Shown: positions 15,930 through 49,614 of the stretch, one piece after another
Position numbering within the stretch: the stretch's first letter is position 1
Layout of the letters: every line of letters begins with the position of its first letter
Source: an uncultured bacterium
Lineage (GTDB): Bacteria; Zixibacteria; MSB-5A5; CAIYYT01
Direction: 5' to 3'
Assembly (NCBI GenBank): GCA_963726455.1
Contig: CAVSCK010000004.1
Coordinates: forward strand, 1,024,001 to 1,088,000
Length of the DNA stretch: 64,000 nt
The notes under the pieces: model-generated
Database searches by the model: none
What the model was told of the DNA's origin: nothing
The model's input: only the letters and a program-made list of their open reading frames with translations
Translations under genes and position numbers: made by a program

Positions 15930-15947
15930 AAAGCCGGTGAAGGGACT
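15930..15947 (+). repeat. att site (displaced 3' end of tRNA-Thr)
   Basis: Identical to 30244-30261. Confidence 0.92.
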
Positions 15948-16026
15948 GCACACATTAATGCACTTTCAATTCCCCTGTCGATCAAAATAGTTTCGAAAAG
16001 GCGAATAGCGTAGTATCGTCGCGCTG

Positions 16027-16572
16027 ATGATAGTGCGAACACGACAGCGACCGCAAAATGAGCCTGAGCGGCCGTGGATACTGGCTACTCACAAAGGCGA
16101 TTACGGAAAGTTGCTTCTCGCAGCGCGGCCATTCCAGAAGTCACTTTGTATAGTCCGGCCCGCCATCAAGAGGACGTCACCAAGAATTTCCTATGAGCCG
16201 CTCTATTTCGATTATGTCTTCCTGAGAGCATTGTCGGGCAGCCTGTTTGTCACGATCAAACACCTTCCGGTAAAGGTAGTCTGCTTGGGCGACAAGACTC
16301 TGTCGATCACACAGGCGGAAATGGATAAGATCACTGAGATTACTCGGACTCTCGCCTATCAAGCCGCTCACCCACCGGGGGCGCAAGAATTTGTACAGGA
16401 ACACAAGGGCAAGCAGGTCACCATCACCGGCGGCTCGGCGTGCGGAATGTCCGGTATCGTCGATTCTGAGGCCAGCACGCGGGACGTGTTTGTCAGGATC
16501 GCGGGCCTGCGAATACGGGTGCCGATGGACAGGTTGGATGTTGAGACTGTTGGCGTAACGTCTTCCCCTTGA
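16027..16572 (+). CDS. NusG/RfaH/UpxY-like transcription elongation factor paralogue
   Basis: EPLYFDYVFL (cf. xPLFPGYVF of the NGN domain) and KOW-like GKQVTITGGSACGMSGIV. Confidence 0.65.
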   Translation: MIVRTRQRPQNEPERPWILATHKGDYGKLLLAARPFQKSLCIVRPAIKRTSPRISYEPLYFDYVFLRALSGSLFVTIKHLPVKVVCLGDKTLSITQAEMDKITEITRTLAYQAAHPPGAQEFVQEHKGKQVTITGGSACGMSGIVDSEASTRDVFVRIAGLRIRVPMDRLDVETVGVTSSP

Positions 16573-17016
16573 GCCTTCTGCCGCTTCTCTACGATTATGC
16601 CCTTATTGATGTACCCGTTGTTTCTGAACGATTCTTCGCCTTTTTAGGTGTCAACTTTGTCAAATTTGCGATACGCTTGTCTCTGTTACTTCTCTGCTTA
16701 TCAGTGCTCATGTCGAATTATCCGGGGCGTCCGGCAGTTGTCCGATGGAATCGGACGACTTACACAAATTCCCCGCGAATCATTGTTAATTCGTTGTTCT
16801 CAATGCCTTCCTGAAGGCGGCATTTTCCCCACCAAAACAACAGCATAGCATTGACATTTATCTCTCCTAGCCTGATATTGAGGTCACGTTCACGAAGTAG
16901 AGCACAAATCTAATTGCAGTCTGGAAGCTGATCACGTCCAGGCGCAACTCCTCTGAGTGCGCAGAGTGTCCTGCTGGAACCTCAGCCGCAAAGACCGAAG
17001 GGAGACAATAAAAATC

Positions 17017-17562
17017 ATGTTGGGAAAGATACTGATTGCGGCGGTATTGACGTTTTGGCTGCCAGCCGTCGGCGGGAATCTCACAGTCACGGTGGATACT
17101 GGCATGGCCTTGAACGGCGGCTTATCCAGCCTAAACTTTCATAGCCGACTCAGCGTGTTGAAGATCGTAATTAATGATGATGCTTGCCCTGCCCAATTGA
17201 CAGAAGCGGGCCTGTGGCCGAACAACAATAAGGTTGACTTTCTGTTCTCGACCACCGGCAAACTAACTTCACTGGATAGCATCGATGCTGTTGACATCAC
17301 ATTCCTCGCCTATGATTATTTTGACCGTGCTATACTGAGATTCGCGACGCCAGAAGCATTCTCCCTGTCGCCCGGTAAGGAGATGGATATTGGCAAGCTA
17401 ATGGGGCAAGTCGTCAACGAACGTCAAAGAAGACTATTATTCAAGTCTGTCACCTTTGTTTCTGCAATCAGAAGAAAGGACGGAAGCCTTTGGTTCGCAG
17501 ACGAATCAGCAATCATTGCGCTCGTCAAATCGCTGAATCTCGAATTTCCAACGCAAAACTAA
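17017..17562 (+). CDS. Hypothetical secreted protein
   Basis: RBS gaagggag; signal-peptide-like MLGKILIAAVLTFWLPAVGG. Confidence 0.6.
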   Translation: MLGKILIAAVLTFWLPAVGGNLTVTVDTGMALNGGLSSLNFHSRLSVLKIVINDDACPAQLTEAGLWPNNNKVDFLFSTTGKLTSLDSIDAVDITFLAYDYFDRAILRFATPEAFSLSPGKEMDIGKLMGQVVNERQRRLLFKSVTFVSAIRRKDGSLWFADESAIIALVKSLNLEFPTQN

Positions 17563-17578
17563 AATTGGAGAATCAATC

Positions 17579-17959
17579 ATGTTCAAGAGATTTTCGCTGA
17601 TCAGTCTTGTCGCAATTCTGTCATTGTTGTTCGCCTGCACCGGCAAACAAGGGCCGACGGGGCCGCAAGGTGATAAGGGCGATCCGGGCGATCCGGGGAC
17701 GGGAACTCGAATTGTCTATCAAAGTACCGCACCCGCAAACAGCCAGCAGTTTGTCGTGATGATCCCAGAGATTGACACCCACGATATGCCGTCAGTCACC
17801 GCGTATACCGCCACGACAACTTATCCGAACTCTTGGTTTCCAATTCCGTTGTATGTTTCTGGCGGGCCGGACTTGGGCGCATGTTTCATCGTTGAAACCG
17901 GAAAGGTTACGCTCGTGAATTGCAGCGGCCTTCTCTACAAGATTGTCATTGTGATCTGA
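17579..17959 (+). CDS. Small lipoprotein with collagen-like Gly-X-Y repeat
   Basis: Lipobox LFAC followed by GKQGPTGPQGDKGDPGDPG. Confidence 0.75.
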   Translation: MFKRFSLISLVAILSLLFACTGKQGPTGPQGDKGDPGDPGTGTRIVYQSTAPANSQQFVVMIPEIDTHDMPSVTAYTATTTYPNSWFPIPLYVSGGPDLGACFIVETGKVTLVNCSGLLYKIVIVI

Positions 17960-18108
17960 TGCGCGTTTGCCGGTGATCCTGGAGGTCAATACTGACTTGA
18001 CGATGGAAATGAGTTGCCCCTTGCCCGGCGGAAGACTCTGAAAATAAATAAAGAAAACTAAAGGTTTTTAGTTGCGTCGCCGATGACATTTGCGTATATT
18101 GGGTGAGA

Positions 18109-18291
18109 ATGAAAACAGGCACAACCGCGAAATCAGATCGGCAGCTTATCAACTTCGAGATTGAACCAGAGCTGAAGGCACGTCTTGAAACTCAGGCCAA
18201 GAGGGAGCATCGCACTCTCAGCGGTCTAGTAAAGCATATCATTCTGTCGTACTTGGAGTCTCGGGAAAGCGAGAAGAAACGTAGCAGATAA
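18109..18291 (+). CDS. Ribbon-helix-helix (Arc/CopG-like) DNA-binding protein
   Basis: INFEIEPELKARLETQAKREHRTLSGLVKHII pattern. Confidence 0.75.
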   Translation: MKTGTTAKSDRQLINFEIEPELKARLETQAKREHRTLSGLVKHIILSYLESRESEKKRSR

Positions 18292-18379
18292 GTAAACGGC
18301 GATGCAGACCAGGCACGGTCTACACCGCCTTTGAGAGGCTCAAATGAGCCAGTACACAGTATAACTTGAGAGGTATCAA

Positions 18380-18757
18380 ATGACAACCCGCAAATCTACA
18401 ATCCCCGCCAACGGTCACAAAGACTCGAACCCGTTCCTTACCGATGAAGAGCAGAGACAAGCTATCAGTGGCCTCCAACTCGCTTCATTTGGTCTCGAAG
18501 AGGCAGCGAAATTTGAGAAGCTGGTGGAAGACAGGAGGCGCAATCCCAACTGGCAAAAGGAATTCAAACCCGCTCCCACCCAGCCGTCAAATAGAGAGCT
18601 CCGCAAGTTTCTCAGAGGGAATGAGAGACGTCGTTTCGACGGGGCTATCTCGAAGATGGATTCAGCGATAAGACTGATGAGGGGCAGCAGCGGTCTCCTG
18701 TCGCAATACAGGGAACTCGCCACTAAGAGAATGAATCAGGCCGGAGGCGCGCTGTGA
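18380..18757 (+). CDS. Hypothetical protein
   Basis: RBS gagagg; stop overlaps the recombinase start (GTGA). Confidence 0.55.
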   Translation: MTTRKSTIPANGHKDSNPFLTDEEQRQAISGLQLASFGLEEAAKFEKLVEDRRRNPNWQKEFKPAPTQPSNRELRKFLRGNERRRFDGAISKMDSAIRLMRGSSGLLSQYRELATKRMNQAGGAL

Positions 18758-19695
18758 ATTCAAGTATTACTCAGACCACTCTGCCGAGCACTAACAGTGT
18801 CGGCTTTCAGCAGCTTATCGATGCTTTTCTGTCCCGCCGAAGTCGAGAGACTCGGCGGGCTTACTCAAAGGACTTGGCCGACTTCGCGACGTATCTTGAA
18901 GTCGCTGACAATGAAACTGCCCTACTGCGGCTCGTGTCCAGTGGCCAAGGACAAGCGAATTCGATGGTCATGGGTTACAAGACGGCGCTGATCGAAGGCG
19001 GCAAATCGCCGAACACGGTCAACCGCCGACTGGCAACCTTGCGCTCGGCCGTCAAGTTAGCAATCACGCTCGGACTTGTGAACTGGACAATAAGCATCGA
19101 AAACGAGCGAGTCGAAGCCTATCGGGACACGACCGGGCCAGGCATTGAGGGATTCAGGAAACTACTCAGGTATTCGGCTCTTTCGGCACCGCCCTTTATG
19201 GGATCTCGGAATACCGCAATTCTGCGGTTATTGTTCGACCTGGCGCTTCGGCGCGGAGAAGTTGCCCAACTCGACTTGGCCGACTTGGACATCGACAACG
19301 GCACTATTCAGGTCATTGGCAAAGGTCGGAGCCAGAAAGCCACTCTGACACTGCCAGCGGCAACATGCGGGGCTTTGAGAGCTTGGCTCATGGTCAGAGG
19401 CGCCCAACCGGGGCCGCTGTTTAGGAACTTTGACCGGGCGCGCAAAGGCAACCGGCTGACCGACGGTGGAATTTACCGGATGGTGCGAAACCTGGGGCGC
19501 AAGATCGGTTTGGTAGTCCGACCTCACGGCTTGCGCCATGCCGCGATCACAAAGGCGCTTGACCTCACCGGCGGCAACGTCCGTAGCGTGCAAAAGTTCT
19601 CCCGACACCGGAACATGCAGACCTTAATGGTCTATGACGACAACAGACAGAATCTCGCCGGTACAGTCTCAAATCTGATTGCCGAGGCGGTTTAA
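18754..19695 (+). CDS. Tyrosine recombinase (XerC-like, no arm-binding domain)
   Basis: SAM-like N-terminus; catalytic R (LRRGEV), K (GKG), HGLRH, SRH...Y (LMVYDD). Confidence 0.92.
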   Translation: MNSSITQTTLPSTNSVGFQQLIDAFLSRRSRETRRAYSKDLADFATYLEVADNETALLRLVSSGQGQANSMVMGYKTALIEGGKSPNTVNRRLATLRSAVKLAITLGLVNWTISIENERVEAYRDTTGPGIEGFRKLLRYSALSAPPFMGSRNTAILRLLFDLALRRGEVAQLDLADLDIDNGTIQVIGKGRSQKATLTLPAATCGALRAWLMVRGAQPGPLFRNFDRARKGNRLTDGGIYRMVRNLGRKIGLVVRPHGLRHAAITKALDLTGGNVRSVQKFSRHRNMQTLMVYDDNRQNLAGTVSNLIAEAV

Positions 19696-19760
19696 ATTCG
19701 GTAGAATATGAGCACGGAAACCATCATTATCAGGCTCATATTCAGCCGGGGAAGTGAACT

Positions 19761-19994
19761 ATGAGTAGCGTTTACATGACCACAGCACAAGCCGCCGAGC
19801 GCCTGCAATACAGTTATAGCCACTTCGTGAGGGTCTTATTGCCAAAGTTGCCGGGCGTCATCAGAAATGGCAAGAATGGCGCTTATCGAATTCCCGTCGC
19901 GTCGTTGGTCGAATTTGAACGAAAGCATTTGGTCACTCACAACCCGGATTCGAAACCAGCAGCCTTTCGAGGGGGCACTGAGCAGAAGGAATAA
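19761..19994 (+). CDS. Helix-turn-helix (excisionase/MerR-like) protein
   Basis: YMTTAQAAERL...GAYRIPVASLVEF. Confidence 0.7.
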   Translation: MSSVYMTTAQAAERLQYSYSHFVRVLLPKLPGVIRNGKNGAYRIPVASLVEFERKHLVTHNPDSKPAAFRGGTEQKE

Positions 19995-20020
19995 TCAAGA
20001 GACATTCAAGTGGCTCAATA

Positions 20021-21400
20021 TTAGCTCCCAGCATTGGGTGACCTGAGAATTCTCTCCAGCTTCCGCCTGCTGATCCCCAACGCCCTCATAGTCGCACTCT
20101 TGTTGCCGTTATTCTTTTCCATGACAGCCGTCACAAAACGCTGTTCGAGCGTCACGATCGGCCAATTAGTATCAGCAACAAAACGGTGTGTGGGAGCGAT
20201 CTTATTGGGCTCGGCGATGGTTTGAGTCCCTTCAAAATTCATTGCCCACTTGGAACCGTATCTTCGAAAGAAATCGAGGGGACTTTCATCCGGGATATAA
20301 GTATCGAGCGGATTCTCGTGAATCTTTCGTTTGGCCGCTTTGATGAGGAACTTCTCTGCGAGCAGACGATAATCCTTCTCGCCAAAAGCGAGTATTGTTT
20401 CTCTACTCCACGCCCACTTCTTGAGTGTGCTCCGGTCAATGAACGAAAGTTGCCATCGGAAGGGATTCAGTCCAGCGAAACTTATGTCGGCCGCAAGCCA
20501 TCTTTCGGAGAAATACTCCCCCCCGAAGTAAGTGTCGGCATCGAGAAACCAACTGTAATTTCCTCGCCAGTGCTTCCACATAGGATGAGACCAGCGATGC
20601 CTATCGATACAGATATATCTCAGTACTTCATTCTTCAACTGCCGCACGTTGCCCTCCCATTCGTTCATCAGAAGTATGTGGACCAGAGCAGCCGGAAATA
20701 GGTCTATTCTTGCGATCTTCTCGTCGGCGCAAAATTCGTCGCAGAAATGCAGGAATAACTCTACCGCGTCAAGTCTTCTGTTTCTAAGGGGTTCCACTTC
20801 TATCTTCAATGGAAATCGCCAATACAGATCAGGACGGATTCCATATCTCCAGTCGTCTTCATTATTTCCTGTGGTGACACCACCACCGGCGTTCTTGACC
20901 GGCCGATTTGTTGCCGCAATGATTCGGCAATCAGACTTCTTGATTTCTGGAGACCCGAGTTTGTGGTATTCGCCCGACTCTATGAAACGGAGGATTTCTC
21001 CCTGAACCGACGAATCCAATCCGCCTATTTCATCGATAAAAAGAGTGCCTCCATTCGCCTCGAATACGAGGCCTTCCCTGTTCTCGGCACCAGTGTAAGC
21101 CCCTTTCTTGCATCCGAAAATCTGGCCGTGCGCCAACTGAGGATTTCCCTGAAAGTCGTACGAATTTACCGGCAGAATTCTTCCGCCTCGATTTCGGTCA
21201 CTCTTCTCATGCAAAAGATGCGCGACAACTTCTTTGCCAACACCCGACTCCCCCACGATCAGCACCGGCTCCCGCCGCGGAGCGTAAAGCTCGACATCGC
21301 CGCGCACTTGAGTCGTCGGTCCACTGCTACCGATCATCTTCTGTCTGGATACTTGGGTTTTCTCGGGTTGAACCGTCACTTCATTATGTGCGTTTTGCAT
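20021..21400 (-). CDS. Sigma-54 enhancer-binding AAA+ protein lacking an N-terminal regulatory domain
   Basis: GESGVGKE, FGCKKGAYTGA, TLFIDEIG, RIIAATN, WEGNVRQLKN; Trp-rich insertion; Fis HTH NGNKSATMRALGISRRKL. Confidence 0.88.
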   Translation of the reverse strand: MQNAHNEVTVQPEKTQVSRQKMIGSSGPTTQVRGDVELYAPRREPVLIVGESGVGKEVVAHLLHEKSDRNRGGRILPVNSYDFQGNPQLAHGQIFGCKKGAYTGAENREGLVFEANGGTLFIDEIGGLDSSVQGEILRFIESGEYHKLGSPEIKKSDCRIIAATNRPVKNAGGGVTTGNNEDDWRYGIRPDLYWRFPLKIEVEPLRNRRLDAVELFLHFCDEFCADEKIARIDLFPAALVHILLMNEWEGNVRQLKNEVLRYICIDRHRWSHPMWKHWRGNYSWFLDADTYFGGEYFSERWLAADISFAGLNPFRWQLSFIDRSTLKKWAWSRETILAFGEKDYRLLAEKFLIKAAKRKIHENPLDTYIPDESPLDFFRRYGSKWAMNFEGTQTIAEPNKIAPTHRFVADTNWPIVTLEQRFVTAVMEKNNGNKSATMRALGISRRKLERILRSPNAGS

Positions 21401-21500
21401 AATATGGTTCCTTTAGCTTAAGCATTTCGCTAAGGCCAAGCTAACACAAGTTAATAATAACGCAATCACTTTCTTCCAGACATCAGCATAATCCTTTGCA

Positions 21501-21513
21501 CATCAAGCAGTTA
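21501..21513 (+). promoter_or_regulatory. IHF-binding-like site
   Basis: CATCAAGCAGTTA vs WATCAANNNNTTR, just upstream of the -24 box. Confidence 0.45.
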
Positions 21514-21531
21514 TTTACGCGCCTTCCGGTT

Positions 21532-21547
21532 TGGCTCGGCTCTTGCT
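21532..21547 (+). promoter_or_regulatory. Sigma-54 (-24/-12) promoter of the element's main rightward operon
   Basis: TGGCTCG-GCTC-TTGCT, one mismatch to TGGCACG-N4-TTGCW. Confidence 0.75.
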
Positions 21548-21583
21548 ATACATACGGGAATGAAGCGATCCAAAGGAGATAAG

Positions 21584-21796
21584 ATGAATCAGTTTCGCTT
21601 GAAAAGAGTGCGGCTGGGGTTGACCCAGTACGACCTGTGGAGGGAGACCGGCATACCGCAATCTCGGATTTCGCTACTCGAACGCGGCTTCTACGAATTG
21701 AAGCCAGACGAAGACGAGAGGCTGAGATCGGTGTTGAAGATGCGCCCTCGGACTCCCAAAAATGACAAAACATCACTTGGCGCAACGGCTGCGTGA
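21584..21796 (+). CDS. XRE/Cro-like HTH protein
   Basis: RVRLGLTQYDLWRETGIPQSRISLLERG; RBS aaggag before ATG 21584. Confidence 0.85.
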   Translation: MNQFRLKRVRLGLTQYDLWRETGIPQSRISLLERGFYELKPDEDERLRSVLKMRPRTPKNDKTSLGATAA

Positions 21797-22002
21797 ACTT
21801 GAGGAACCCAGTGCCGCGACAAAGGCCACAGACGAAAGTGAATGTCAACCTCGGGACACCTAACCCAGACGGCCTTGCTCTGCTTGTCAACTTCGTTTCG
21901 ACCCGACTCGTGGTATCGATTCTCCAAAGTAACCAAGAACACAACCAAGAGGGCGACACCGTTGGGAGCCCTTCACCGGAAAGGAGTTCACAACGTGTGT
22001 AG
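21793..22002 (+). CDS. Small hypothetical protein
   Basis: GTGA overlap with the HTH gene, operon-like packing. Confidence 0.35.
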   Translation: MNLRNPVPRQRPQTKVNVNLGTPNPDGLALLVNFVSTRLVVSILQSNQEHNQEGDTVGSPSPERSSQRV

Positions 22003-22213
22003 CAAACTCGATTCGTTCAAAGAGTTTGTCCTCCGAGGTCACAAGTTAATCAGCGAGGGACAGGCCGACAAAGCTTTGTCTCTTGCATTCTGTCTACTCG
22101 ACAGCTTGGGCAATGTGGCGTTTCGCGAACAGGAACCTAAGAGAGCGTGCGTTTCCAAAAGCGTGCAGCCTTCGAATTCGAAACGAATTAACCAAATACA
22201 AAGGAAGAGGTAA
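21995..22213 (+). CDS. Small hypothetical protein
   Basis: RBS aaggag at 21981, GTG start. Confidence 0.45.
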   Translation: MCSKLDSFKEFVLRGHKLISEGQADKALSLAFCLLDSLGNVAFREQEPKRACVSKSVQPSNSKRINQIQRKR

Positions 22214-22217
22214 AACG

Positions 22218-22667
22218 ATGACAGGCGAGATCAAGGTACTCGGACAAAAGCCAGTTCAAGTCAGCTTGGCAGGACAGGAATTCACCATCTATCCGGCGAC
22301 ACACTATCGGATGAATCAGATCCTTGAGTGCGCCGCAACGGCGAGAGCAAATTCGGAAGCCATGCGCAAAGCAGAGGAGACCGAAGATGCGGCAATCAAA
22401 GCGCGGGGCGAAGAAATCCCCATCAGACCACTCAAGTCGACGCCGGTCGATTACGGAATTCTCCGGCTTATCTGCAAGGCTCCAGACACTTTCGAGAACA
22501 GCAAATTGGTTGAAGGCAAGGTTCCCGCTGTACTGACCAACGAATTCTGGAGCCAGCAAGTCCAGACGGCGGAAATAGCGGGCTTATTCGAGGTCTTTGT
22601 GTCCCTGCTTGACATCGACAAGCTCATTAAGAACGCTCTCTCACTCGTGGGACAGACCCGTGTGTAG
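22218..22667 (+). CDS. Putative tail assembly chaperone-like protein
   Basis: 149 aa with N-terminal VSLAGQEFTIYP strands then helices; directly upstream of the tape-measure-like gene (positional inference). Confidence 0.45.
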   Translation: MTGEIKVLGQKPVQVSLAGQEFTIYPATHYRMNQILECAATARANSEAMRKAEETEDAAIKARGEEIPIRPLKSTPVDYGILRLICKAPDTFENSKLVEGKVPAVLTNEFWSQQVQTAEIAGLFEVFVSLLDIDKLIKNALSLVGQTRV

Positions 22668-22715
22668 CCCCATGACAGAAGATGACTCGGATTTTCCAAA
22701 AAACTTGGAGCGTAA

Positions 22716-25504
22716 ATGCCCGGTGTAGTTGACATCCTGAAATATGTGTTGGAGCTGGACTCCGGCCAACTCAAAGCCGAAGCGAAACAATCCGACACAA
22801 TAATCAACCAGTTGTCAGGCACAATCAAGGGCGCGCTTGTTGGCGCATTGGGTGCCGCCGCTGTTGGTTTCGCTACGGTCAAGATCGGCGAATTTCTGAA
22901 AGATGCCACCCTGACGGCGGCACGTACCGAAGTGTTGGGAACTGTCTTGCATCAGGTCGGCAAGGTGGCGGGTGAATCAAGCGGATATCTTGACGGCTTA
23001 GCCGACAAGGTTGAGGCGCTAGGGGTCACTACCCAAGCAAGTCGCACTCTGCTTATTCGACTGATGCAGTCTCATCTTGACCTTGCCTATGCCGTGAAGA
23101 TTGCGACAGTTGCGCAAGACTTAGCCGTAGTCGCTGATCAGAATTCCTCTGAGGCCGCCGAAGGAATTACGATAGCAATTGCCAAAACCGATGTTGAGCT
23201 GTTGCGGCAATATGGTATCGTCATTAACGCAGAGCGACTATTCAAACAGTACGCCCAGACAATCAATAAATCAGCGTCCGAACTTTCCGATCTCGACCGT
23301 CGCACGGCGATTGCTAACGAGGTATTTCGCCAAGGGGCTGCCTCCGCTGGTACTTACGAAGCGGCAATGGCTGATGTCGGCAAGCAGATAACATCAATGC
23401 CTCGATACGTCGAGGAGATGAAGAACGCTCTCGGAAAGGGGTTTCTCCCCCTGCTCGCTGACATTGTGCATTTACTTCGCGACGCCACAGTCGGCCTTAC
23501 CGATTTTCTGACACCGGCGACAGAACTAAAAACAGCCGAACTAAACAAACTACAGTCAGAATTTAGCAAGATCACTGGAATCTTACCTGACTTGGTAAAG
23601 GAATTTGTAAATCTATCCACCAAGACAAGACTCACCAACACCGAACAAGATCGGCTCCTTACCATTCAGCAACAGATCGCCGCGCTCGCTCCCGGCTATA
23701 TCACAGCACTCAACGATGAGGGTATGGCGCTCGACCTTAACGCCAAATCCTTAGCCAACTACACCGGATTGCGCAAGGAACAGATTGAAACTATTAAGAA
23801 TGATCTGATTTCAGCACTGTTAGCGGAGGAGGAGGCACAAGATCGCGCCAACAAGAAGAACCTTGCTGCGATTGAGAATTTCAAGAAGATAGCCGCTTCG
23901 AACAAAGCTGCTGGTGTTAAGGTTGGCTATGGCATCCCAGGCCAAATCAATGAGATAGTGATCGAATTGTCGAAGGGCATCCAGCGCTCACTTGAATTAC
24001 AACAGCGCATCGCGGCACTTGGAAGCGAGGGGAGGATGCTGCCAAGAAAATTGAGAAGATACCAGAAGACCTGAAAATCGAGATCAAATTCGGCAGCGAG
24101 AACTTGTCCTCCGCCGAGGAGCAGATAAAGCGCATTCAGTCATTAGTCGAGGCGGTTCAATCCCAATTCGGCGACCAAGGGATTACGCCCGATAGCGACA
24201 AGTTGATTGCGGCATTGCGGTCACTTATCAATTCGGAAGCGGCGATGCTTTCGACCGATGCCCAGAGGATTATCATTGACGCACTCAACAAGGCGCGGGA
24301 CAACCAACGCAGTGATGCTAAGTCGAAATCCGATCAGGAGCGATATTACAAGGACATACAGGAGAGCGAAGCCAATGCAGCGAAAGATCGCCTCAATGAC
24401 ATAGAAAAGGAAAAGCGGGCGCGTGTAAATGCAGCCGTCGATGTCGCTGACGCCCTTGGTTATGCCGCTACCAATTTCTTTGGTCTCTTCGATGAAGGTA
24501 TTGCCCGAATCGCCTCGAATCTCAGTAACGCGATCAGTGGCGCAATTTCTGGATTCTCACAAGGCGGAGTTGCCGGGATTGCCGGAGCTATCGGCTCGAT
24601 TCTTTCAGGATTCGCTTCCCTTTTCAGCGGTGGAGCGGACAAGATTGTCGTGTCGCAATACGAATTGATCGAAGCCATCGAAAATTGGGAGTCTACCATT
24701 GAGACATTGACGCCAAAAGAAAAAACCGCGCAACAAGAGATGGCCGAACTCGGTATTGAGGCGGCCAGCAGATTAATGGGCAACGGTTGGGACTGGAATC
24801 AGATTGTGGCACTGCTCAGACCCCTATTTGAATCTGTCGGGTTATCCATTCCACAAGGCATTACATATGAGCAATTTCTTGGTTGGGGAAATGACATCAT
24901 CGCGGACATTGGCGCATCAAATGCACAAACGACCGCTGAATTGAAAGCGGATAATGCCGCGTCGCGCAGGGAACTTGTTCTGAGTCAAAAGACGGGAACT
25001 GACGCGCTTGAGACCATCGCCGATCTTGATAAACTCTATGCCTTGAGCCCCGAGGAATTGCATGCTCTCTATGAAGAAACGATGGCGAAGTTTGGTGACA
25101 AAATGTCAGATAGCGACAGAATCAACACACAGGCATTGATTAACGATTACCACAGAGGAGAGGCTGAGCGAGCGCAGAGCGGGGCCGGAGCCGAGCAGAC
25201 TCAGGCGTCCCGCTCGATTCAGAAAATAACCGAACGCCAGGTCGACTCGCTCATTTCCGCGTTGTCCACCATCGACCTGCACATAACCGAGGGCATACAG
25301 AAATTGCTCGATGGCATCCGCAACACGACTAACAGGACAACCATGAATGCGGCGGCGACTATCGAAGTGGCGGTAATCAACGCGGGTGTAATCAACACGG
25401 GGTCGATCAGAGTAGCGGGATCGATGAGTGGCAATAATGGCGCATCGGCGAATACGAAGCAATTACTTACTGTCGAATCACGCAGCCTAGGTAGGAGGGT
25501 GTAA
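22716..25504 (+). CDS. Phage tail tape-measure-like protein, split by a frameshift near 24030
   Basis: Ala/Gly-rich amphipathic helical segments, ELLRQYGIVI...SELSDLDRRTAIANEVFRQG core, IAGIAGAIGSILSGFASLFSGG segment; second frame open from ~24032 (EDAAKKIEKIPEDL...) into ORF 24104-25504. Confidence 0.72.
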
Positions 25505-25574
25505 GGCATGTCATCGGAAGCAAACACAGCGTGTGCGAGAATCACCGGAGTTGACTGTGTCTAACCGCGCAAAA

Positions 25575-25985
25575 ATGACACCTGAAAAAAGAGAGACGTT
25601 CCTCGCTACGCTTGAGACTACGGGAGGGCAGATAACAAAGGCATGTAAGGCCTGTGCTGTTTCGCGCGACGTAATCTATCGACTTCGCAAAAGTGATGAA
25701 CAATTCGGGAAAGACTTCGAAGCCGCACTCGACAAAGGCATTGACCTGCTCGAAGCGGAATGCAAGCGGCGCGCATTTGAAGGCGTTCCCAAACCCGTGT
25801 TCTATAAAGGCAAAGAGTGCGGGATCATTCAGGAATACTCCGATACACTTGCGATCTTCCTGATGAAGGCTCACCGGTCGAAGTACAAAGAGAAATTCCT
25901 ACTGACTGGTGAAGGCGGCGGCGCAGTCAAAGTCCTCGTTGAATATGTGAACAAACCCAATGGAGTGTATCGTGAAGTGTGTTGA
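25575..25985 (+). CDS. Terminase small subunit-like HTH protein
   Basis: FLATLETTGGQITKACK...EAECKRRAFEGVPKPVFYKG...YSDTLAIFLMKAHRSKYKE pattern of phage TerS-like proteins. Confidence 0.72.
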   Translation: MTPEKRETFLATLETTGGQITKACKACAVSRDVIYRLRKSDEQFGKDFEAALDKGIDLLEAECKRRAFEGVPKPVFYKGKECGIIQEYSDTLAIFLMKAHRSKYKEKFLLTGEGGGAVKVLVEYVNKPNGVYREVC

Positions 25986-26397
25986 CCTCAAGACAGTTTT
26001 CGGACGGAGATACAAGATTGCTGCTGATCCCTCGGCCGGGGCCCGCAACGTCGATCCGTGGTACTGGACTATCCCCTGCCGGCGCGGCGAAATCTATCCC
26101 TATGGCGGCGACTTCCTTTGTGCCTCGGTACGAAATGGGGCGGTTTCCAAGTCGATGCGCTCCTGGCCCGAGCTGACGGTTTTGCAGGACGCCGACGACG
26201 AGACAGTCTTCAAGTTTCACGTCAACAACTTCGAAAAGGTAGCTCAGGCCGTGGGTGCCAAGAAACGGCGGCGAATGTCAGTCGAGACCATGAAGAAAAT
26301 TGGTGCAGACACGGCGTACGTGACGCCAAACGGGGGTGAATTTCAACGATCTCCCCAAGGGGCGAGTGATTTGACACGGGGGGCAGTTCGTGTATGA
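25960..26397 (+). CDS. Hypothetical MGE protein
   Basis: Overlaps both neighbours; DPWYWTIPCRRGEIYPYGG...QDADDE motif; function unknown. Confidence 0.6.
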   Translation: MECIVKCVDLKTVFGRRYKIAADPSAGARNVDPWYWTIPCRRGEIYPYGGDFLCASVRNGAVSKSMRSWPELTVLQDADDETVFKFHVNNFEKVAQAVGAKKRRRMSVETMKKIGADTAYVTPNGGEFQRSPQGASDLTRGAVRV

Positions 26398-27022
26398 TTT
26401 AGACACCCTAAAGGCCGGCGTCACCATCGAGAACATCCTTGACGATTTCGGGATTGCCCACCGCCATCACAGGGCAGCCTGTCCCGTTCACCGTGGCGAC
26501 AATAGGTCTGCTTTCAGCTTCAACGATGAGGCTTTCTACTGCCACACCCAAGGATGCAAGGGCGGCGTTATCGACCTGGTCATGGCTCTGGCCGGGACTG
26601 ATTTCAGGGGCGCGCTGGACTATCTGGCTCGCAAGAAGGGAATCGCGAATGATTTCGGAATCACCGGGACGACTCAGTTTACAAGGAGTCTGCCTGACAA
26701 TTCTGATCCATTCAGGGAAGAAAGGAAACGGCTCTCACCAAAAGACTATGTGGAGTTGCTTTGTATGGCCGACGATCTTAACCGCGCTGAATCCGACCTC
26801 GCCGAATGCAGGAGTAACATTGGCACACTGACCGCCCAATTATCCCAACTTATCCACCTCAAGAGGCGGAAACAGATTGCCAAATCGCTGTACTACTTGA
26901 ACACACAGAAGATCGACGACAACCGGCTCGCACTGTTCGACGAGCAGGAAGCACAACTCAACTACAAGGTCAAAGAGATAAAGCGGCAAATCAGCGAGTT
27001 CAGGAAGAAGGTAAGGCAATGA
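26390..27022 (+). CDS. CHC2 zinc-finger (DnaG zinc-binding domain) protein with C-terminal coiled coil
   Basis: CPVHRGDNRSAFSF...FYCHTQGCKGGVIDLVM...FRGALDYLA. Confidence 0.85.
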   Translation: MYDLDTLKAGVTIENILDDFGIAHRHHRAACPVHRGDNRSAFSFNDEAFYCHTQGCKGGVIDLVMALAGTDFRGALDYLARKKGIANDFGITGTTQFTRSLPDNSDPFREERKRLSPKDYVELLCMADDLNRAESDLAECRSNIGTLTAQLSQLIHLKRRKQIAKSLYYLNTQKIDDNRLALFDEQEAQLNYKVKEIKRQISEFRKKVRQ

Positions 27023-28263
27023 TTAGCGACTGCGAAATTGACGCCGAGTTTTGCCAAGAGACCGACGCTGACATCGACCTGACGATACCCGAATCCGGCT
27101 TTCTCCTGAAATATTACAACCTAATCTGCCCTATCACAGAGGCGCCTGAAGTCTACCATCTGTTTATGGGAATGTCTTTGATCGCCGGTGTCCTCGGGCG
27201 CAAAGTGTTTCTCGACTGGACGGCTTACAAGATTTACCCGAACCTGTATATCATCCTGGTCGGCGCGTCTTCAGCAATCAAGAAATCGACGTCAATCAAC
27301 CAAGCCCGACCGTTTCTTAACGCCGTCGATCCCAACCTGATCTTTCCAAATGAATTCTCGAATGAAGCTTTCTTGGAGCTCCTTGTCACTCAGCCGCAAG
27401 GTTCGCTGTTCTGGGATGAATTCGGCGGCGTGCTCGCGACATTCGAGCGTTCGTACATGTCCGGTACCAAAGAAATGCTGACCTCGATGTTTGACTGTCC
27501 GAGTGACTATCGACGGTTGCTCAAAGGCAACGCCAAGAGCAAAGAGTCGGGCAAGGTCGTTATCATCCGGGAACCGTACATCAATATCGCCACTACTTCA
27601 ACCCTTGAGTGGCTCGTCAATCGGATCAAGGAACAGGATATCAAGTCGGGTTTCCTGGCTCGATTTGTCTACGTGCCCGGTAAAGAGCCGAGCAAACGAC
27701 TTTCGCGCCCGCCCAAATTAGATCAGAAGTTGAGGTCCGAAATCATCATGGAGTTGAAGGCTATTCGAGAGATTTCGGGCGAAGCGGAACTCACTGACGA
27801 CGCGTTTCTGTACTATGACACCTGGTACAACGGTGTCTTTGATCAGATACAGAAGGGCGACAATCGCGACAAGCTCTCCCCTTTCTTTAGCCGGCTACTG
27901 GTCTACGCTCTCAAATTCGCCCTGATCTACCAAGTGTCCGAAGATCACTCGCTGACAATTCAGGAACACAACATGATCAGGGCGTGTCAGTTGGTCGACT
28001 TCCTCAAGCGCAACATCAAAGACATGGTCGAAAATGAACTGGTTTTTGGTGTGGACGCCATTCAGTTGAAGAGAGTGTTGGAAGTCATCAAGTCAGAGGG
28101 TGCGATTGAACGGAGCAAACTTTTCACGCGAGTGAACTATCGAAAAGACATTCTCAACCGACTCATCGATACCCTTCTTGAGCAGGAACAGATTTCGGTT
28201 TCTCGGGAACAGTGGCACAAGGGGAAGAAGCCGAGAACGATTTACACCTATAACGGTAAGTGA
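27019..28263 (+). CDS. DUF3987/YfjI-like P-loop NTPase (replication helicase-like) with C-terminal winged helix
   Basis: PNLYIILVGASSAIKKSTS, WDEFG, SGFLARF motifs. Confidence 0.8.
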   Translation: MISDCEIDAEFCQETDADIDLTIPESGFLLKYYNLICPITEAPEVYHLFMGMSLIAGVLGRKVFLDWTAYKIYPNLYIILVGASSAIKKSTSINQARPFLNAVDPNLIFPNEFSNEAFLELLVTQPQGSLFWDEFGGVLATFERSYMSGTKEMLTSMFDCPSDYRRLLKGNAKSKESGKVVIIREPYINIATTSTLEWLVNRIKEQDIKSGFLARFVYVPGKEPSKRLSRPPKLDQKLRSEIIMELKAIREISGEAELTDDAFLYYDTWYNGVFDQIQKGDNRDKLSPFFSRLLVYALKFALIYQVSEDHSLTIQEHNMIRACQLVDFLKRNIKDMVENELVFGVDAIQLKRVLEVIKSEGAIERSKLFTRVNYRKDILNRLIDTLLEQEQISVSREQWHKGKKPRTIYTYNGK

Positions 28264-28290
28264 CAACCACTTAGGGCGCTTGAAAGGAAA

Positions 28291-28590
28291 TCAAAACTTT
28301 GGTAAATTTAGATAAACTTCGCGAAATGGTATGTTATGCGCAGACAATGAGTTACCATATAACTTCTAAACTACTAACTACTACTACTACTACTACAGGG
28401 GGCGCTGACTCACCTGAAATCAAAGGGAAAAAGAGGGAGAGATGCAAGAAGTTGTCGAAGTTTAGAAGTTTACACCTAAACCCTTTTATCTAATTACGAT
28501 ACCTATTCGCGAACATTTGCGAAGTTTACGACTGCTTCTGTTGCCCACTTGGACTCGGGGAAACAAGTTGCCAAAGACCTTTAGGGCGCA
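28291..28590. other. Putative replication origin (iteron-like repeats)
   Basis: GAAGTTTA/TAAACTTC octamers in both orientations, (CTA)n tract, ttagggcgc repeated at 28271 and 28581; non-coding and directly after the helicase-like gene. Confidence 0.5.
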
Positions 28591-28626
28591 TACTGTGACA
28601 CCGACTACCGAAAGGAATAACAGACG

Positions 28627-30372
28627 ATGAAGTGCGCCGTCTATGCCCGGTACAGCTCCGACATGCAGAAACAGACCAGCATCGAAGATCAGGTGCGGGA
28701 GTGTCGGCAGTTCATCGAGCACAGACAGTGGGAAGTTGCCGACGGCCGGGTGTACTCTGACTACGCCATCAGTGGAGCTGATATCAACCGCACGGGTTAC
28801 CAGGCACTCAAGGCAGACGCATACAAGAAACTGTTTGCCTGCATCGTAGTTGACGACTTATCGCGACTCGGAAGGGACGCCGGAGAAGCAATCCAAATCT
28901 ACGGGGAATTGACTGCCTATGGAGTTAACATCGTCTCTGTGTCGGATGGAATCGAAACGGCTTCATCTTCTTCGAAGATTCCCTACTACTTCAAGAGCAT
29001 TGCCAACGAACTCTTTCTGGATGAACTGAAGGCCAAGATCGTTCGCGGTCTCAAAGGTCAAGTCTCTCGCGGTTACTCTGCCGGCGGCCGGACCTACGGC
29101 TACTACTCCGAGCCGGAACTTGTTCCGGGTGGCGGCGCTGACAAATTCGGCAGACCTCGGCGGCACGGGGTTAAGATCAAAATCAATGAGAAAGAAGCGG
29201 AAGTCGTGCGAATGATCTTCCGACTCCGCGCCGATGGTCTTGGACAACGTGCGATTGCCACTCGCCTGAATGAACTGAAAATCCCTTCCCCATTTGCACA
29301 CGTCGACCACTTTAGCGGAACTTGGTCGCCCGACACGGTACGCCACATGTTGCAACAGCGGAGATATATCGGCGACTGGACTTGGAACAAGAGCCGGTCT
29401 CTCAAGAAGAATCCTCTCGGTAAGCGAATTGTCAGAGAGAAGACAGTCGACCAATGGATTGAACACGTCGACGAATCATTGCGGATCATTCATCAAGATT
29501 TGTGGGACGCTGTACTGGCGACATTTGCAGACAAAGAAACACGATTGCGGTTCACGCCGGGGCCGAAAGGTGTCTATCTCTTGGGTGGGCTGCTTAAGTG
29601 TTCTCGCTGCGGATCGTCACTTGTCGGAATGAAATCGAAAGGATGGACTGCCTATGTGTGCAGCGGCAACAGAAGTAAAGGCAAGGTGTACTGTCCAGCC
29701 TCACACCGACTACCGCTCATCGAGGCTGACTCCGGAGTTCTGCAAGGCTGCAAAGAAATTCTGTTTTCTGATGAAACACTCGCATTGATTTCACGCCAAG
29801 TCAACGAAGCGTTGGCGACTATCGAGAAGCAGACTCCCAAGCGGCGAGATCGCTTAGCGAGAAGACTCAACACTCTTGACACGTCCATTGAGCGCCTACT
29901 TGATTTTGCGGAGACTGAACCGAGTAGTCCTGCTCTTGGTGAACGCCTACGGACTCTGGAAGCGGAAAAGCGCACTGTCCAGGCCGAACTTGATGCACTC
30001 AAAACCGAAACCCGTAGGACTAACCGACTGTCCGAAGAGTTCATCAAGGCCAGTCTGCAAGGGCTCCTACCTGCCGTGAGCGCTGACGAAAGCAGCCGCC
30101 AGGAGCTGAAATTCATCCTCAGCAAGATGTTTCCGGAAAAATTGTCTGTCACGATTCGCGAAAAAAATGGCTATGTTGAGTTTGGCGTGCTTGGTAACCT
30201 AATGCCCCTCAATATCCTTCCGAAGGCTTCTGCGTTAATGTATAAAGCCGGTGAAGGGACTCGAACCCCCGACCAGCTGATTACAAATCAGCTACTCTAC
30301 CAACTGAGTTACACCGGCTTAAGAAATCTGCCTGCCCGTTTCAAGTACCGTCACTCCGACGCGCAGGATTAG
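28627..30372 (+). CDS. Large serine recombinase (integrase)
   Basis: YARYSS catalytic Ser, DDLSRLGRD, recombinase domain, Zn ribbon LLKCSRCGS...YVCSG...YC, coiled coil; 3' end crosses the att repeat and tRNA. Confidence 0.95.
   Translation: MKCAVYARYSSDMQKQTSIEDQVRECRQFIEHRQWEVADGRVYSDYAISGADINRTGYQALKADAYKKLFACIVVDDLSRLGRDAGEAIQIYGELTAYGVNIVSVSDGIETASSSSKIPYYFKSIANELFLDELKAKIVRGLKGQVSRGYSAGGRTYGYYSEPELVPGGGADKFGRPRRHGVKIKINEKEAEVVRMIFRLRADGLGQRAIATRLNELKIPSPFAHVDHFSGTWSPDTVRHMLQQRRYIGDWTWNKSRSLKKNPLGKRIVREKTVDQWIEHVDESLRIIHQDLWDAVLATFADKETRLRFTPGPKGVYLLGGLLKCSRCGSSLVGMKSKGWTAYVCSGNRSKGKVYCPASHRLPLIEADSGVLQGCKEILFSDETLALISRQVNEALATIEKQTPKRRDRLARRLNTLDTSIERLLDFAETEPSSPALGERLRTLEAEKRTVQAELDALKTETRRTNRLSEEFIKASLQGLLPAVSADESSRQELKFILSKMFPEKLSVTIREKNGYVEFGVLGNLMPLNILPKASALMYKAGEGTRTPDQLITNQLLYQLSYTGLRNLPARFKYRHSDAQD
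30246..30318 (-). tRNA. tRNA-Thr (anticodon UGU)
   Basis: Reverse complement GCCGGTGTAACTCAGTTGGTAGAGTAGCTGATTTGTAATCAGCTGGTCGGGGGTTCGAGTCCCTTCACCGGCT folds as a cloverleaf; CCA not encoded. Confidence 0.97.
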
Positions 30373-45412: not shown

Positions 45413-46794
45413 CTAGCCGGGGTTCTCCCGGTTGTTATCAATTCCGTACTTCTTGATCTTCTCGAATAGCGTCGTGTAATCGATCTTAAGAATTTCCGCC
45501 GTCTTGCGTTTGTTGCCGTGAGTCTGCGCGAGTATCCGCAGGATCATGCCGCGTTCGGCCTGTGCCTGGGCATATTGTCCCACTTCGCGCAGTCCGGCGC
45601 CCTCGCGCAAGGCGAATTTCTTCGGTACTGGGCAGACGAATCGCCAGATGCTCCGGCTTGATCTTCTTCCCTTCCGCCAGAATGATCGAGCGCTCGACCG
45701 TGTTTTCCAGTTCGCGGACATTGCCCGGCCAGTGGTAGCGTTCGAGAATGGCGATGGCCTCGCGCGACAGCGACTTCTCCCCCTTTTTCATACGGCGGGA
45801 GTATTTCTCGACAAAGTAATTGGCGAGCGGCACGATGTCGTCGCGGCGTTCACGCAACGGAGGAATATGAATCGGAAACACCGACAAACGATAGAAAAGA
45901 TCCTCACGGAACTTCTGTTTGCCGATGGCTTCCTGCAAGATTCTGATTGGTGGCGGCAATAATGCGGACATCCACCTCAATCGGTTTGTTGCCGCCAAGA
46001 CGCTCGAATGAGTGCTCCTGCAGCACGCGCAATAGTTTCGCCTGCAGCGAAAATTCGAGATCACCGATTTCGTCGAGAAAGACGGTGCCACCATCGGCGA
46101 TTTCGAACTTGCCCATCTTGCGGGCATGCGATGAAGTAAACGCACCCTTCTCGGAACCGAACAATTCGTTCTCCAGAAGTTCGCCCGGAATGGCGGCGCA
46201 GTTGATCGTGATATAGGGTTTATTCTTGCGCTGCGACAACGAGTGGATGGCATGCGCGAACAATTCTTTACCGGTACCCGATTCGCCGGTGAGCAGAACG
46301 GCGGTGTCTGAGGGCGATACCTTCTGCACCAGCCGCGAGACTTCCAGCATGTTTTCGCTGGCGCCGATGATCTCGGCGAAACCGAGCGACTGCGCAAGTT
46401 CTTCACGCAGCAGCATATTCTCCGCAACCAGCCGCTGGTTTTCCAGAGCGCGTTCGACCAGCATTTGCAGATGATTGATGTCGAACGGCTTCTGCAGGAA
46501 ATCGAAAGCCCCGCGTTTCATCGCCTCGACAGCATTCTCGATTGTGCCGTAGGCGGTCATGACGATCACGGCGGTATCGGGGTCATGTTCCTTCACCTGC
46601 GACAACACTTCCAGCCCCGAGATGTCGGGCATCTTAAGATCGGTCAGCACCACATCGAAATGCTTCTCTTTGCTCTTGGCGATACCAATATCACCCGAGC
46701 CCGCGGCATCAACATCGTATCCTTCCGAAGTCAATGACGCCGACAACATGTCGCGCATGCTGTCCTTGTCGTCGATAACCAAAATAGCCGGCAT
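45413..46794 (-). CDS. Sigma-54-dependent response regulator (two frameshifts)
   Basis: REC ILVIDD...TDLKMP; GESGTGKE; ENELFGSEKGAFTSS; FREDLFYRL; WPGNVRELEN; HTH GNKRKTAEILKIDYTTLFEK. Confidence 0.9.
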
Positions 46795-46938
46795 AATTCC
46801 TTTCGCTACGGTTGGCGACAGTTGAACTGCTCCCATTCTCTTGTATCGTCATCGGCGGCAAAAGCTAAAGGGGACGGGTCAGTTGTGAAAACTACCGAAA
46901 TCGAGGAAGAGCCGGAATATTGTTGCGTTCTGAAACAG

Positions 46939-48231: not shown

Positions 48232-49614
48232 CTACTTGTGAATGTGCTTGAGAAATTCCTCAACCTCAGGTACGCCGCCCTGTAAAATCAAGTATCCGTT
48301 GTAAGGTTCGCGCTCGGTGATGTCGCTGGAAATCGGAGTTAGCATCATCTCTTTGACCTTGTCCAGGTCATTGGTCTGTCCCATCACCCAGCCGAGCTTG
48401 ATATAGGCAACTTCCGGCAGCATGTTAGACAGCGGGATAATACCTTTCGACATCAGGTCGCGGCCGGTGTCGTACACGAACATGTGGACATAACCCCAGA
48501 GCGTCTGTACGGTCATGAACATGGCGACGCCACGGTCACGGGCGCGTTCGATAGCCGGATACAGTGGTTTGTTGACATGTCCGAGGCCGGTGCCGGCGAT
48601 AATGATTCCGCGATAGCCGTTGTCCACCAGTGAATCGATGATGTCGGGCTGCATGTTGGGATAGTAATAAACGATGGCCACCTTCTCTTCGAAGAAGGGA
48701 TAAACTTTCGCTTTGCGATCGGTGCGACGATGATTGTAGTCGGATTGCAGCGGCGAAATTTTCTGGCGGTTGACCATCGCGAGCGGGATATCCCCTATCG
48801 TGCGAAAAGTCGAACGATAGGAGGAATGCATTTTGCGCACACGTGTACCGCGATGCAGCAAGCCGTATTCGTCAGAAGTTGGCCCAAACATGCAAACCAT
48901 TACTTCCGCCAGATCGGACTCGGCGGCCGTTTTTGTGGCATGCATGAGATTGAGGGCGGCATCGGAGCTAGGCCGATCCGAGGAACGCTGCGAGCCGACC
49001 ATCACGATCGGCACCGGCGAATCCTGAACCATATAGGCCAGCGCCGCGGCGGTGTGATGCATGGTGTCGGTGCCGTGACCAATCACTATACCGTCGATTC
49101 CCTTTTCGATTTCGCGGCCGATGGCGATTGCCAATGTCTTGTATTGTTCCGGCCCCATGTTCTCGCTGAAGACGGCGAATAGTTTCTCAGTGGTAAGATT
49201 ACAGATGTCGGCCAACTCGGGAACGGCGCCGTAAAGTTCCCCGGGAGAAAACGCGGGAATCACCGCGCCGGTGCGATAATCAAGACGTGAAGCGATCGTT
49301 CCGCCGGTGCCGAGAAGTTTGACATACGGCCTGCCCTTGGTGATCGGAAATTCCTTTTCGGGGATCTTGTAGTGCGCCTCTTTGTAGCCGACTTCTTTCA
49401 TTGCGAGAATGGTGCTAATGGCTACGCCGACGTTGTAGCCGCTCTGGAGTTTAACGACGATATGTTGGTCGTCATCAAATTCGCTGCGAGGCAGCAGAAT
49501 GCCGCGAAAATCTCCGCGAGTCGTCTTGATTTCCGTATCGCCCCAGACGCGCATATTGAATTCTTTCAGCGTGTTCAGCGCCGCGCCCTTATAGCCCTTG
49601 AATATGTCAGCCAT
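48232..49614 (-). CDS. gatD: Glu-tRNA(Gln) amidotransferase subunit D
   Basis: GatD N-terminal domain (KLQSGYNVGV) + asparaginase core TGGTIASRLDYRTGAV, HGTDTM, GSQRSSDRPSSDA, RKMHSSYR. Confidence 0.92.
   Translation of the reverse strand: MADIFKGYKGAALNTLKEFNMRVWGDTEIKTTRGDFRGILLPRSEFDDDQHIVVKLQSGYNVGVAISTILAMKEVGYKEAHYKIPEKEFPITKGRPYVKLLGTGGTIASRLDYRTGAVIPAFSPGELYGAVPELADICNLTTEKLFAVFSENMGPEQYKTLAIAIGREIEKGIDGIVIGHGTDTMHHTAAALAYMVQDSPVPIVMVGSQRSSDRPSSDAALNLMHATKTAAESDLAEVMVCMFGPTSDEYGLLHRGTRVRKMHSSYRSTFRTIGDIPLAMVNRQKISPLQSDYNHRRTDRKAKVYPFFEEKVAIVYYYPNMQPDIIDSLVDNGYRGIIIAGTGLGHVNKPLYPAIERARDRGVAMFMTVQTLWGYVHMFVYDTGRDLMSKGIIPLSNMLPEVAYIKLGWVMGQTNDLDKVKEMMLTPISSDITEREPYNGYLILQGGVPEVEEFLKHIHK

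Follow-up and report, generated by a model that had tools for sequence, protein, structure and literature searches.

The stretch of DNA analyzed here (64,000 nt, hereafter the window; contig CAVSCK010000004.1 of assembly GCA_963726455.1, positions 1,024,001 to 1,088,000 of the forward strand) comes from an uncultured bacterium of the Zixibacteria and carries a 14.3-kb integrated element whose integrase is a large serine recombinase (LSR). We found that the attachment (att) core of this element lies inside the integrase gene, in frame, and that recombination at the core swaps the C terminus of the enzyme. This had been proposed by an earlier reading made from the DNA letters without database searches (hereafter the sequence-only reading), and it is borne out by the reading frame and by the duplicated 18-nt core. 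The same reading suggested that integration state may toggle integrase stability or directionality and antiterminator expression; its interpretation as a whole is supported in part. We are highly confident of this arrangement, namely an att core inside the integrase gene and two integrase isoforms, both in the window and family-wide. The whole explanation, in which loss of a conserved tail upon integration has a functional consequence of some kind, we hold at a probability of roughly 55%.

The att core of the element lies inside its integrase gene

The LSR gene in its prophage form occupies positions 28627..30372 of the plus strand and encodes 581 amino acids, ending ...HSDAQD. Residues 1 to 539 are encoded by the element, residues 540 to 545 (KAGEGT) by the att core, and residues 546 to 581 by antisense tRNA-Thr and host DNA. 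This tRNA gene, tRNA-Thr(UGU) (anticodon tgt; 30245..30319, minus strand), is the only one detected by ARAGORN in the window; it reaches 70.1 bits with the Rfam tRNA model and is the intact integration target. The LSR open reading frame (ORF) covers the entire tRNA gene in antisense and continues for 53 nt past it. The right copy of the core (attR; 30244..30261, 18 nt) comprises the last 17 nt of the tRNA (30245 to 30261) plus one base, and the left copy (attL; 15930..15947) is a displaced duplicate of the tRNA 3' end. Exactly two copies of the core sequence, AAAGCCGGTGAAGGGACT, are present in the window, and no match was obtained in 100 shuffles even with 2 mismatches tolerated. Position 30244 is the first base of a codon (30244 - 28627 = 1617 = 539 x 3), so the core reads KAGEGT.

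Because the core repeats at both ends, we consider the segment from 15948 to 30243 (14,314 nt core to core) to be the inserted element; the 3' end of tRNA-Thr is supplied by the element. Beyond the left core, the reading frame continues for 21 codons and a stop (15948..16013, plus strand; stop codon at 16011-16013), reading AHINALSIPLSIKIVSKRRIA. An integrase encoded across the joined ends would have 539 + 6 + 21 = 566 amino acids, and the next ATG, at 16027, follows 13 nt after the stop. Upon re-reading, the coordinates and lengths that the sequence-only reading had given for both the 581- and the 566-amino-acid forms were all correct. The reconstructed attP contains an imperfect dyad, detected with a symmetry script: its left arm (GCGTTAATGT, 30232..30241) and right arm (ACATTAATGC, 15952..15961) lie 13 to 22 bp from a centre inside the core, between GGTG and AAGG, and 15 of 26 positions match.

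The ORF at 28627..30372 is a large serine recombinase and the integrase of the element. Its Pfam domains are Resolvase (3.8e-24, residues 4-149), Recombinase (2.5e-22) and Zn_ribbon_recom (1.7e-07), it matches the integrase family phrog_95 in PHROG (1.1e-85), and its best NCBIfam match, which is under the cut-off, is CcrB (3.2e-32). In a 36-row alignment, the catalytic-domain residues S18, D21, Q22, R80 and R83 are invariant, S10 and R8 nearly so, and the zinc-ribbon cysteines C325, C328, C345 and C356 are invariant as well. AlphaFold2 (AF2) models contain long helices at residues 364-501 followed by a hairpin. A Foldseek search with the model of P0004, a homologous integrase of 573 amino acids from locus L001, gave full-length serine integrases as best matches, namely 9y66 (attL-bound), Bxb1 9iu2 and phiC31 9rah (E 4e-19 to 6e-17). 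All LSR domains fall within the body of the protein up to residue ~532.

An att core inside the integrase gene is a family trait

We fetched 80 related loci from genome contigs and searched them for the LSR ORF, using a family profile, and for tRNAs, using ARAGORN. An LSR ORF was present in 79 of the 80 loci, and 67 of these ORFs were complete with a profile score of at least 400. Thirty-five of the 67 complete ORFs end within an antisense tRNA or transfer-messenger RNA (tmRNA), the targets being tRNA-Met (26), tmRNA (3; L020, L028 and L060), tRNA-Glu (2), tRNA-Ser (2), tRNA-Thr (1) and tRNA-Pro (1). The other 32 include several with tRNA-like tails lacking an ARAGORN call (L010, L036, L046 and L053), as well as loci that end at a contig edge or have a second core copy downstream (L001, L033 and L053). 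Rather than stopping before att, homologous integrases thus read into the core or the tRNA in 35 of 67 complete loci, and the arrangement foreseen by the sequence-only reading holds up against this check. An att core inside the integrase gene is a trait of the family.

At the protein level, the C termini of the 60 best homologues correspond mostly to the three reading frames of the antisense tRNA T-arm, giving peptides such as GTRTPD, GNRTPV, GLEPRTRGL and GFEPATFGL. A regular expression recovered tRNA-like tails in 72 of 113 proteins of at least 500 amino acids, and by eye many of the other 41 have one too; this count is a crude lower bound, and we relied on the DNA-based one (35/67).

The target follows the LSR tree, which was built without the last 60 amino acids: 7 changes account for 7 states over 36 labelled rows, and none of 300 label shuffles required 7 or fewer. 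As kin share labels, this supports, rather than proves, that the target tracks the LSR lineage. The sister of the window LSR, from L016 (SH-aLRT 97, 49% identity), has the identical 18-nt core in the same frame and the same target, tRNA-Thr. Across the clade, cores of 18 to 21 nt lie in tRNA or tmRNA genes, and hosts include Zixibacteria, Ignavibacteria, Planctomycetota, Proteobacteria and others. We also searched the 38 loci with an overlapping tRNA for attL, and within the DNA fetched an upstream repeat of at least 13 nt was present in five: 21 nt in L032, 16 nt in L042, and 13 nt each, possibly by chance, in L041 (which runs into Ns), L043 and L051. Five loci are not enough for a broad comparison of excised-form tails.

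In one locus (L033), two serine integrases of different clades (9950-11743 and 18774-20444) are found in tandem at a single tRNA-Met, and the 21-nt core that they share is read by each in a frame of its own (..NGSGGRI.. vs ..MVAGAGF..).

Natural isoforms and conservation of the excised-form tail

Relatives of the window integrase provide natural counterparts of the two forms. P0004 reads through its 21-nt core into a tail, ..SGAGT-CNAIGVSIPFEVIVVSKRRAA, followed by a stop, and the gene order at L001 matches that of the window (primase finger, DUF3987, LSR). Three close relatives, P0002, P0003 and P0005 (90, 85 and 84% identical to P0004), end at ..SGAGT. In L006, the T-arm of tRNA-Met reads GGG ATT TGA in the integrase frame, with a stop right after the core. 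Prophage forms of the P0002/P0003/P0005 type thus end at the core because of the TGA in the tRNA-Met T-arm, so that the tRNA-Met relatives lose 21 amino acids on integration, and the window prophage form gains 36 unselected residues because the corresponding ACT CGA lacks a stop. The exchange point itself can be approached from L050 (in tRNA-Met) and L057 (not in a tRNA), whose nearly identical integrase genes have the same DNA as far as 12-13 nt into the tRNA and share nothing beyond. This divergence places the exchange where the acceptor stem meets the T stem and, like the attP dyad, weakly favours a site of the LSR type.

At L001, the core (4242-4262) recurs 6.8 kb downstream beside tRNA-Met (11071-11148). 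The stretch between the two cores holds two large surface-protein genes and no integrase and looks like an accreted integrase-less island. A degenerate tRNA remnant (4398-4458; Rfam 29.4 bits) lies 72 nt past the L001 integrase stop.

The tail at 15948..16013 is homologous to the natural tails of P0004 and P0007, the latter (..CSTFGFFIPFEVTVTSKRGAA) being similar to that of P0004. The tail codons of the window and of L001 (4261-4326) have equal length and the same stop position, and they agree at 9 of 21 residues (S, I, P, V, S, K, R, R, A), 7 of which are encoded by different codons; at the nucleotide level, only 35 of 66 positions agree. The tails end in IA or AA. Their first codons, which vary, fall on the dyad arm of the respective element, and the conserved VSKRRxA motif is placed ~51-71 nt from the predicted crossover centre. 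The phiC31 integrase has been described as contacting roughly +/-27 bp. The conservation of VSKRRxA lies outside a contact range of the phiC31 type, and the pattern is therefore the one expected of protein-level selection. Taken across the window, P0004 and P0007, we regard it as evidence that the excised-form tail is under such selection. Furthermore, the post-core arm is T-arm-like in L031 and L040, with a TGC replacing the TGA of the tRNA, and the integrase frame stays open there.

Predicted docking of the tail at the coiled-coil base

We next considered AF2 models of both forms. P0004, modelled with a 58-row alignment, reached a pLDDT (predicted local distance difference test) of 85.9. Its residues 539-555, the core-coded ones included, form a disordered linker, and the following tail strand (560-567) has a block pLDDT of 83. 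The window prophage form reached a pLDDT of 80.0, with residues 533-581 all below 50, so that its tail is predicted to be disordered.

The P0004 tail (540-573) was then folded as a separate chain together with the body (1-538), along with three controls. The tail-body ipSAE was 0.63, 0.63 and 0.62, compared to 0.00 for all three controls; the ipSAE mark applied is one that 58 of 80 solved complexes and 2 of 110 mismatched pairs reach, and it is a rough guide here, since a custom alignment was used. At least 72% of the contacts were common to the runs, and partner pLDDT was at least 49. In these models, the hairpin after the coiled coil offers its strand 522-534 to tail residues 556-570, which also touch residues 508 and 512 as well as 366-401, the latter being the first helices at the coiled-coil base. 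The models thus predict that the tail adds a beta-strand next to the last hairpin of the zinc ribbon, at the coiled-coil base, with SIPLSIKIV as the docking strand and SKRR as its basic end.

Gene content and transcription of the element

The first gene after the left core (16027..16572, plus strand) encodes a protein of 181 amino acids, P0121. The sequence-only reading had called it NusG-like, and this label survives as a remote similarity: a profile of the protein and four distant relatives reached RfaH (4.4e-07, positions 22-159) and NusG (5e-04) in the PDB, and one relative, P0123, passes the Pfam NusG cut-off (23.1 vs 22.2), but the Pfam scan of the protein itself was empty at E<=0.01, with KOW5_SPT5 appearing only at E 0.13. 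Its NCBIfam match, UpxY antiterminator (3.8e-07), is far under the cut-off, the Atlas lead points to NusG/KOW clusters (score 0.92), and a search for close homologues returned the protein alone.

Consensus scans detected no terminator-like site after the integrase gene, and nothing resembling a promoter in the stretch from the left core to the RfaH-like gene. From this, we infer that in the circle the integrase transcript would meet no terminator-like site and could run on through the RfaH-like gene and the genes of the same orientation as far as 19994, and that in the prophage integrase transcripts would cross the active tRNA gene head-on. A sigma-70-like promoter, a consensus match only, lies at 28280..28308 (plus strand), in the 363-nt gap before the integrase gene. 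Further along the same gap, ACT is repeated 8.7 times (28370-28396), a tract that could be slippage-prone.

Downstream of the RfaH-like gene are four small ORFs without family match, followed by an Xer-like tyrosine recombinase of 313 amino acids (18754..19695, plus strand; best NCBIfam XerC/XerA, far under the cut-off) and an HTH_17 protein of 77 amino acids from an excisionase-like fold family (19761..19994, plus strand; Pfam E 2.6e-04, 21.7 bits vs a cut-off of 27). The minus-strand gene at 20021-21400 encodes, according to domain searches, a sigma-54 activator with AAA+ and HTH_8 domains and without receiver or sensor domain. At least two receiver-type sigma-54 activators are encoded in the host flanks (8874-10250 and 45904-46836). 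Two ORFs of ~450 amino acids without match precede the gene of a terminase small subunit-like protein (25533..25985, plus strand; phrog_4044, 2.4e-35), and a CHC2 zinc-finger primase piece and a DUF3987 primase/helicase (26390..28263, plus strand) stand before the integrase in the same order as in L001. No capsid or tail module was recognised in the element with Pfam or PHROG; tail-fibre and tape-measure PHROG matches were weak (E 1e-04 to 7e-04) and covered short stretches only. Judging by its genes (integrase, replication genes, terminase small subunit gene terS) and its tRNA insertion, the element resembles phage satellites or tycheposon-like islands. Its GC content is only mildly unlike that of the flanks.

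Elsewhere in the window (48232-51589, minus strand), a GatD-like gene (Asparaginase + GatD_N) adjoins a GatE/GatB_N-like gene. The GatD/GatE pair is usually described in archaea. Other genes of this genome carry sorting tails of the type IX secretion system (T9SS) and dockerins.

Proposed cycle and alternative explanations

We propose that the 14.3-kb satellite-like element inserts, by means of its LSR, in the 3' end of tRNA-Thr(UGU). From the circle or a tandem junction, a 566-amino-acid integrase with the conserved 21-residue tail would be made; from the prophage, a 581-amino-acid integrase in which 36 unselected antisense-tRNA and host residues replace the tail. Loss of the tail would be the common outcome of integration. 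The tail strand would pair with the last zinc-ribbon hairpin and lean on the coiled-coil base, and its loss would alter the integrase, be it in att-site activity or direction, or in stability. Such an effect on integrase behaviour would be expected because the coiled-coil-base region sets directionality in other serine integrases. A more specific version is that the tail, docked at the coiled-coil base where separate recombination directionality factor (RDF) proteins act in other serine integrases, represents a built-in directionality element, the excised form being set to integrate and the prophage form differing in direction or competence; this would amount to a self-editing switch without a separate factor, common to a phylum-spanning clade that targets tRNA and tmRNA genes. 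We advance this version only as a tentative and rather unlikely refinement.

Several observations weigh against the explanation as a whole. Conservation of the tail is seen in three sequences only (window, P0004/L001 and P0007), and a search for more tail-bearing proteins with P0004 515-573 gave P0004 and three tail-less relatives only. In a Phycisphaerales-type subclade, to which L031 and L040 belong, GAATCGACA is conserved at the DNA level in the two rows compared, and this could reflect att-site recognition instead of protein function. Both isoforms are seen in relatives, but the window element is known from its integrated form alone, and the docking was modelled on the relative P0004, not on the window's own excised form, with a partner whose own fold is uncertain (pLDDT ~50). 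The attP dyad is weak: random windows equal it in 5.3% of cases, and the corresponding value for the L001 dyad is 12%; in L033 the symmetry script found none. Finally, tblastn found no match to the RfaH-like protein in the 80 related LSR loci, most of whose left ends lie beyond the 10-kb flanks fetched.

The best-surviving alternative is incidental packing: the gene simply abuts attP, the tail is a dispensable linker, the two isoforms behave alike, and integration state acts through transcription alone, in that transcripts of the prophage collide with the tRNA promoter and those of the circle read through. In its favour, the LSR domains are complete by residue ~532, and the post-core tails vary widely in length and sequence across the wider family. 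In L033 the two LSR clades read one tRNA-Met core in two frames, so the core-coded residues are unconstrained. Additionally, the Dehalococcoides authors found the overlapping part of the LSR DsiB divergent and doubted its function (PMC3146451), and the last 28 residues of the SPbeta integrase are disordered in cryo-electron microscopy (PMC11722253), which, by analogy, suggests that LSR tails can be dispensable. However, in the tail compared here, synonymous divergence goes along with a residue pattern, a length and a stop that have been kept, the strand is predicted confidently and docks specifically in models with null controls, and the TGC in place of TGA keeps the frame open in L031 and L040. 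With these points in mind, we consider incidental packing possible but somewhat unlikely.

A second alternative is that the element is a fixed, immobile remnant, in which case the 581-amino-acid fusion would merely be a leftover open frame and the two-isoform cycle would have ended here. The only mildly deviating GC content is compatible with this, but the integrase ORF remains intact and aligns with the family at every invariant residue, the two core copies do not differ in any of their 18 nt, and the segment encoding the tail has kept both its open frame and the conserved position of its stop. We thus regard a fixed remnant as improbable.

That the Xer-like tyrosine recombinase and its HTH_17 neighbour inserted the element, with the 18-nt repeat as a typical tyrosine-integrase core and another role left to the LSR, is very improbable. 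In favour of this view, it is usually tyrosine integrases that use tRNA 3' ends, their cores measuring 15-20 nt (Islander); the two genes look like an int-xis module, and homologues of the recombinase, 54-61% identical, lie beside the LSR in L006, L008 and L016. However, the recombinase gene is internal (2.8 kb from one element end and 10.5 kb from the other) and Xer-sized with its XerC/XerA matches far under cut-off, a homologue is present in only 5 of the 80 LSR loci in the DNA fetched (vs 35 of 67 LSR genes ending in tRNA or tmRNA), the target tracks the LSR tree and the tRNA association is with the LSR gene 3' end family-wide, and the similar tyrosine recombinases of L006 and L016 go with different targets, tRNA-Met in the former and tRNA-Thr in the latter. 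The pair may serve in dimer resolution or belong to a nested element.

Relation to known systems

An att site inside the integrase gene is already known from dsiB and Mx8, and the window element is a further case. For another candidate precedent among LSRs, sre of phage R4, a literature search yielded no backing. In the ssrA-specific islands of Dehalococcoides (McMurdie et al. 2011, PMC3146451), the passages on dsiB describe an LSR gene whose 3' end always overlaps the att repeat and whose stop codon lies outside the island or in a neighbouring island; the authors suggest that dsiB is perhaps fully functional only on the circle. Like DsiB, the window integrase is a CcrB-like LSR, as judged from its best NCBIfam match, encoded at the island edge with its 3' end over a structured-RNA att repeat. 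The tandem arrangement, with a neighbour supplying the 3' piece, recurs in L001, L033 and L053. Unlike the Dehalococcoides islands, the window element targets tRNA-Thr and not ssrA (tmRNA), and it has no small serine recombinase (DsiA) among its 17 ORFs, only one of which contains a Resolvase domain. Moreover, the window tail is conserved and predicted to be structured, whereas only divergence was reported for DsiB.

In phage Mx8 (IntP/IntX; PMC6070905), attP also lies inside the integrase coding sequence, and integration yields a recombinant gene with a new 3' end, whose protein is active with altered properties, according to this review. Unlike the window integrase, that of Mx8 belongs to the tyrosine recombinases, and its carrier is a complete phage. 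The sequence-only reading had instead drawn a parallel with mycobacteriophage BPs (PMC4557955). The parallel stands in that attP lies inside a gene whose C terminus is changed, much as the tRNA-Met relatives lose 21 amino acids, and the viral-form tail of BPs has a defined function. It is nevertheless a loose analogy, with Mx8 and dsiB being closer: the BPs gene encodes a repressor (gp33) and its tail is an ssrA-like degradation tag, whereas the tail of the window type is predicted to dock.

The predicted contacts can also be set beside SprA of SPbeta, in which the extreme C terminus of the LSR and the coiled-coil-base region have been implicated in direction control (as described in PMC11722253); the tail modelled here is likewise predicted to touch the coiled-coil-base region. 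In contrast to the window integrase, the SPbeta enzyme keeps its C terminus upon integration and takes its direction from a separate RDF protein. Tycheposons (10.1101/2020.12.28.424599) share with the window element tRNA integration, an integrase, a primase/helicase and terS, and 27 of 937 of them have a large serine recombinase; their host group differs, and the passages of the preprint at hand are silent on an att site inside the integrase gene. In the literature covered, which included few subscription journals and no supplements, we found no account that treats this layout as general among tRNA-targeting serine integrases, and none of a conserved excised-form LSR tail. The present analysis shows how widespread the trait is and adds pairs of isoforms from nature, evidence for protein-level selection on the excised-form tail and a predicted docking site at the coiled-coil base.

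These data have a direct use in annotation: integrase C termini such as GFEPxTFGL, GTRTPD and DSNPRP are antisense tRNA and mark element ends precisely. Serine integrases are prized for genome engineering since they act in one direction, and how this direction is set is an active structural question. The clade offers many natural isoform pairs that differ in the tail. If the proposed explanation is true, a tail that is added or removed by recombination and tunes the enzyme would represent a new and very compact way of sensing the integration state.

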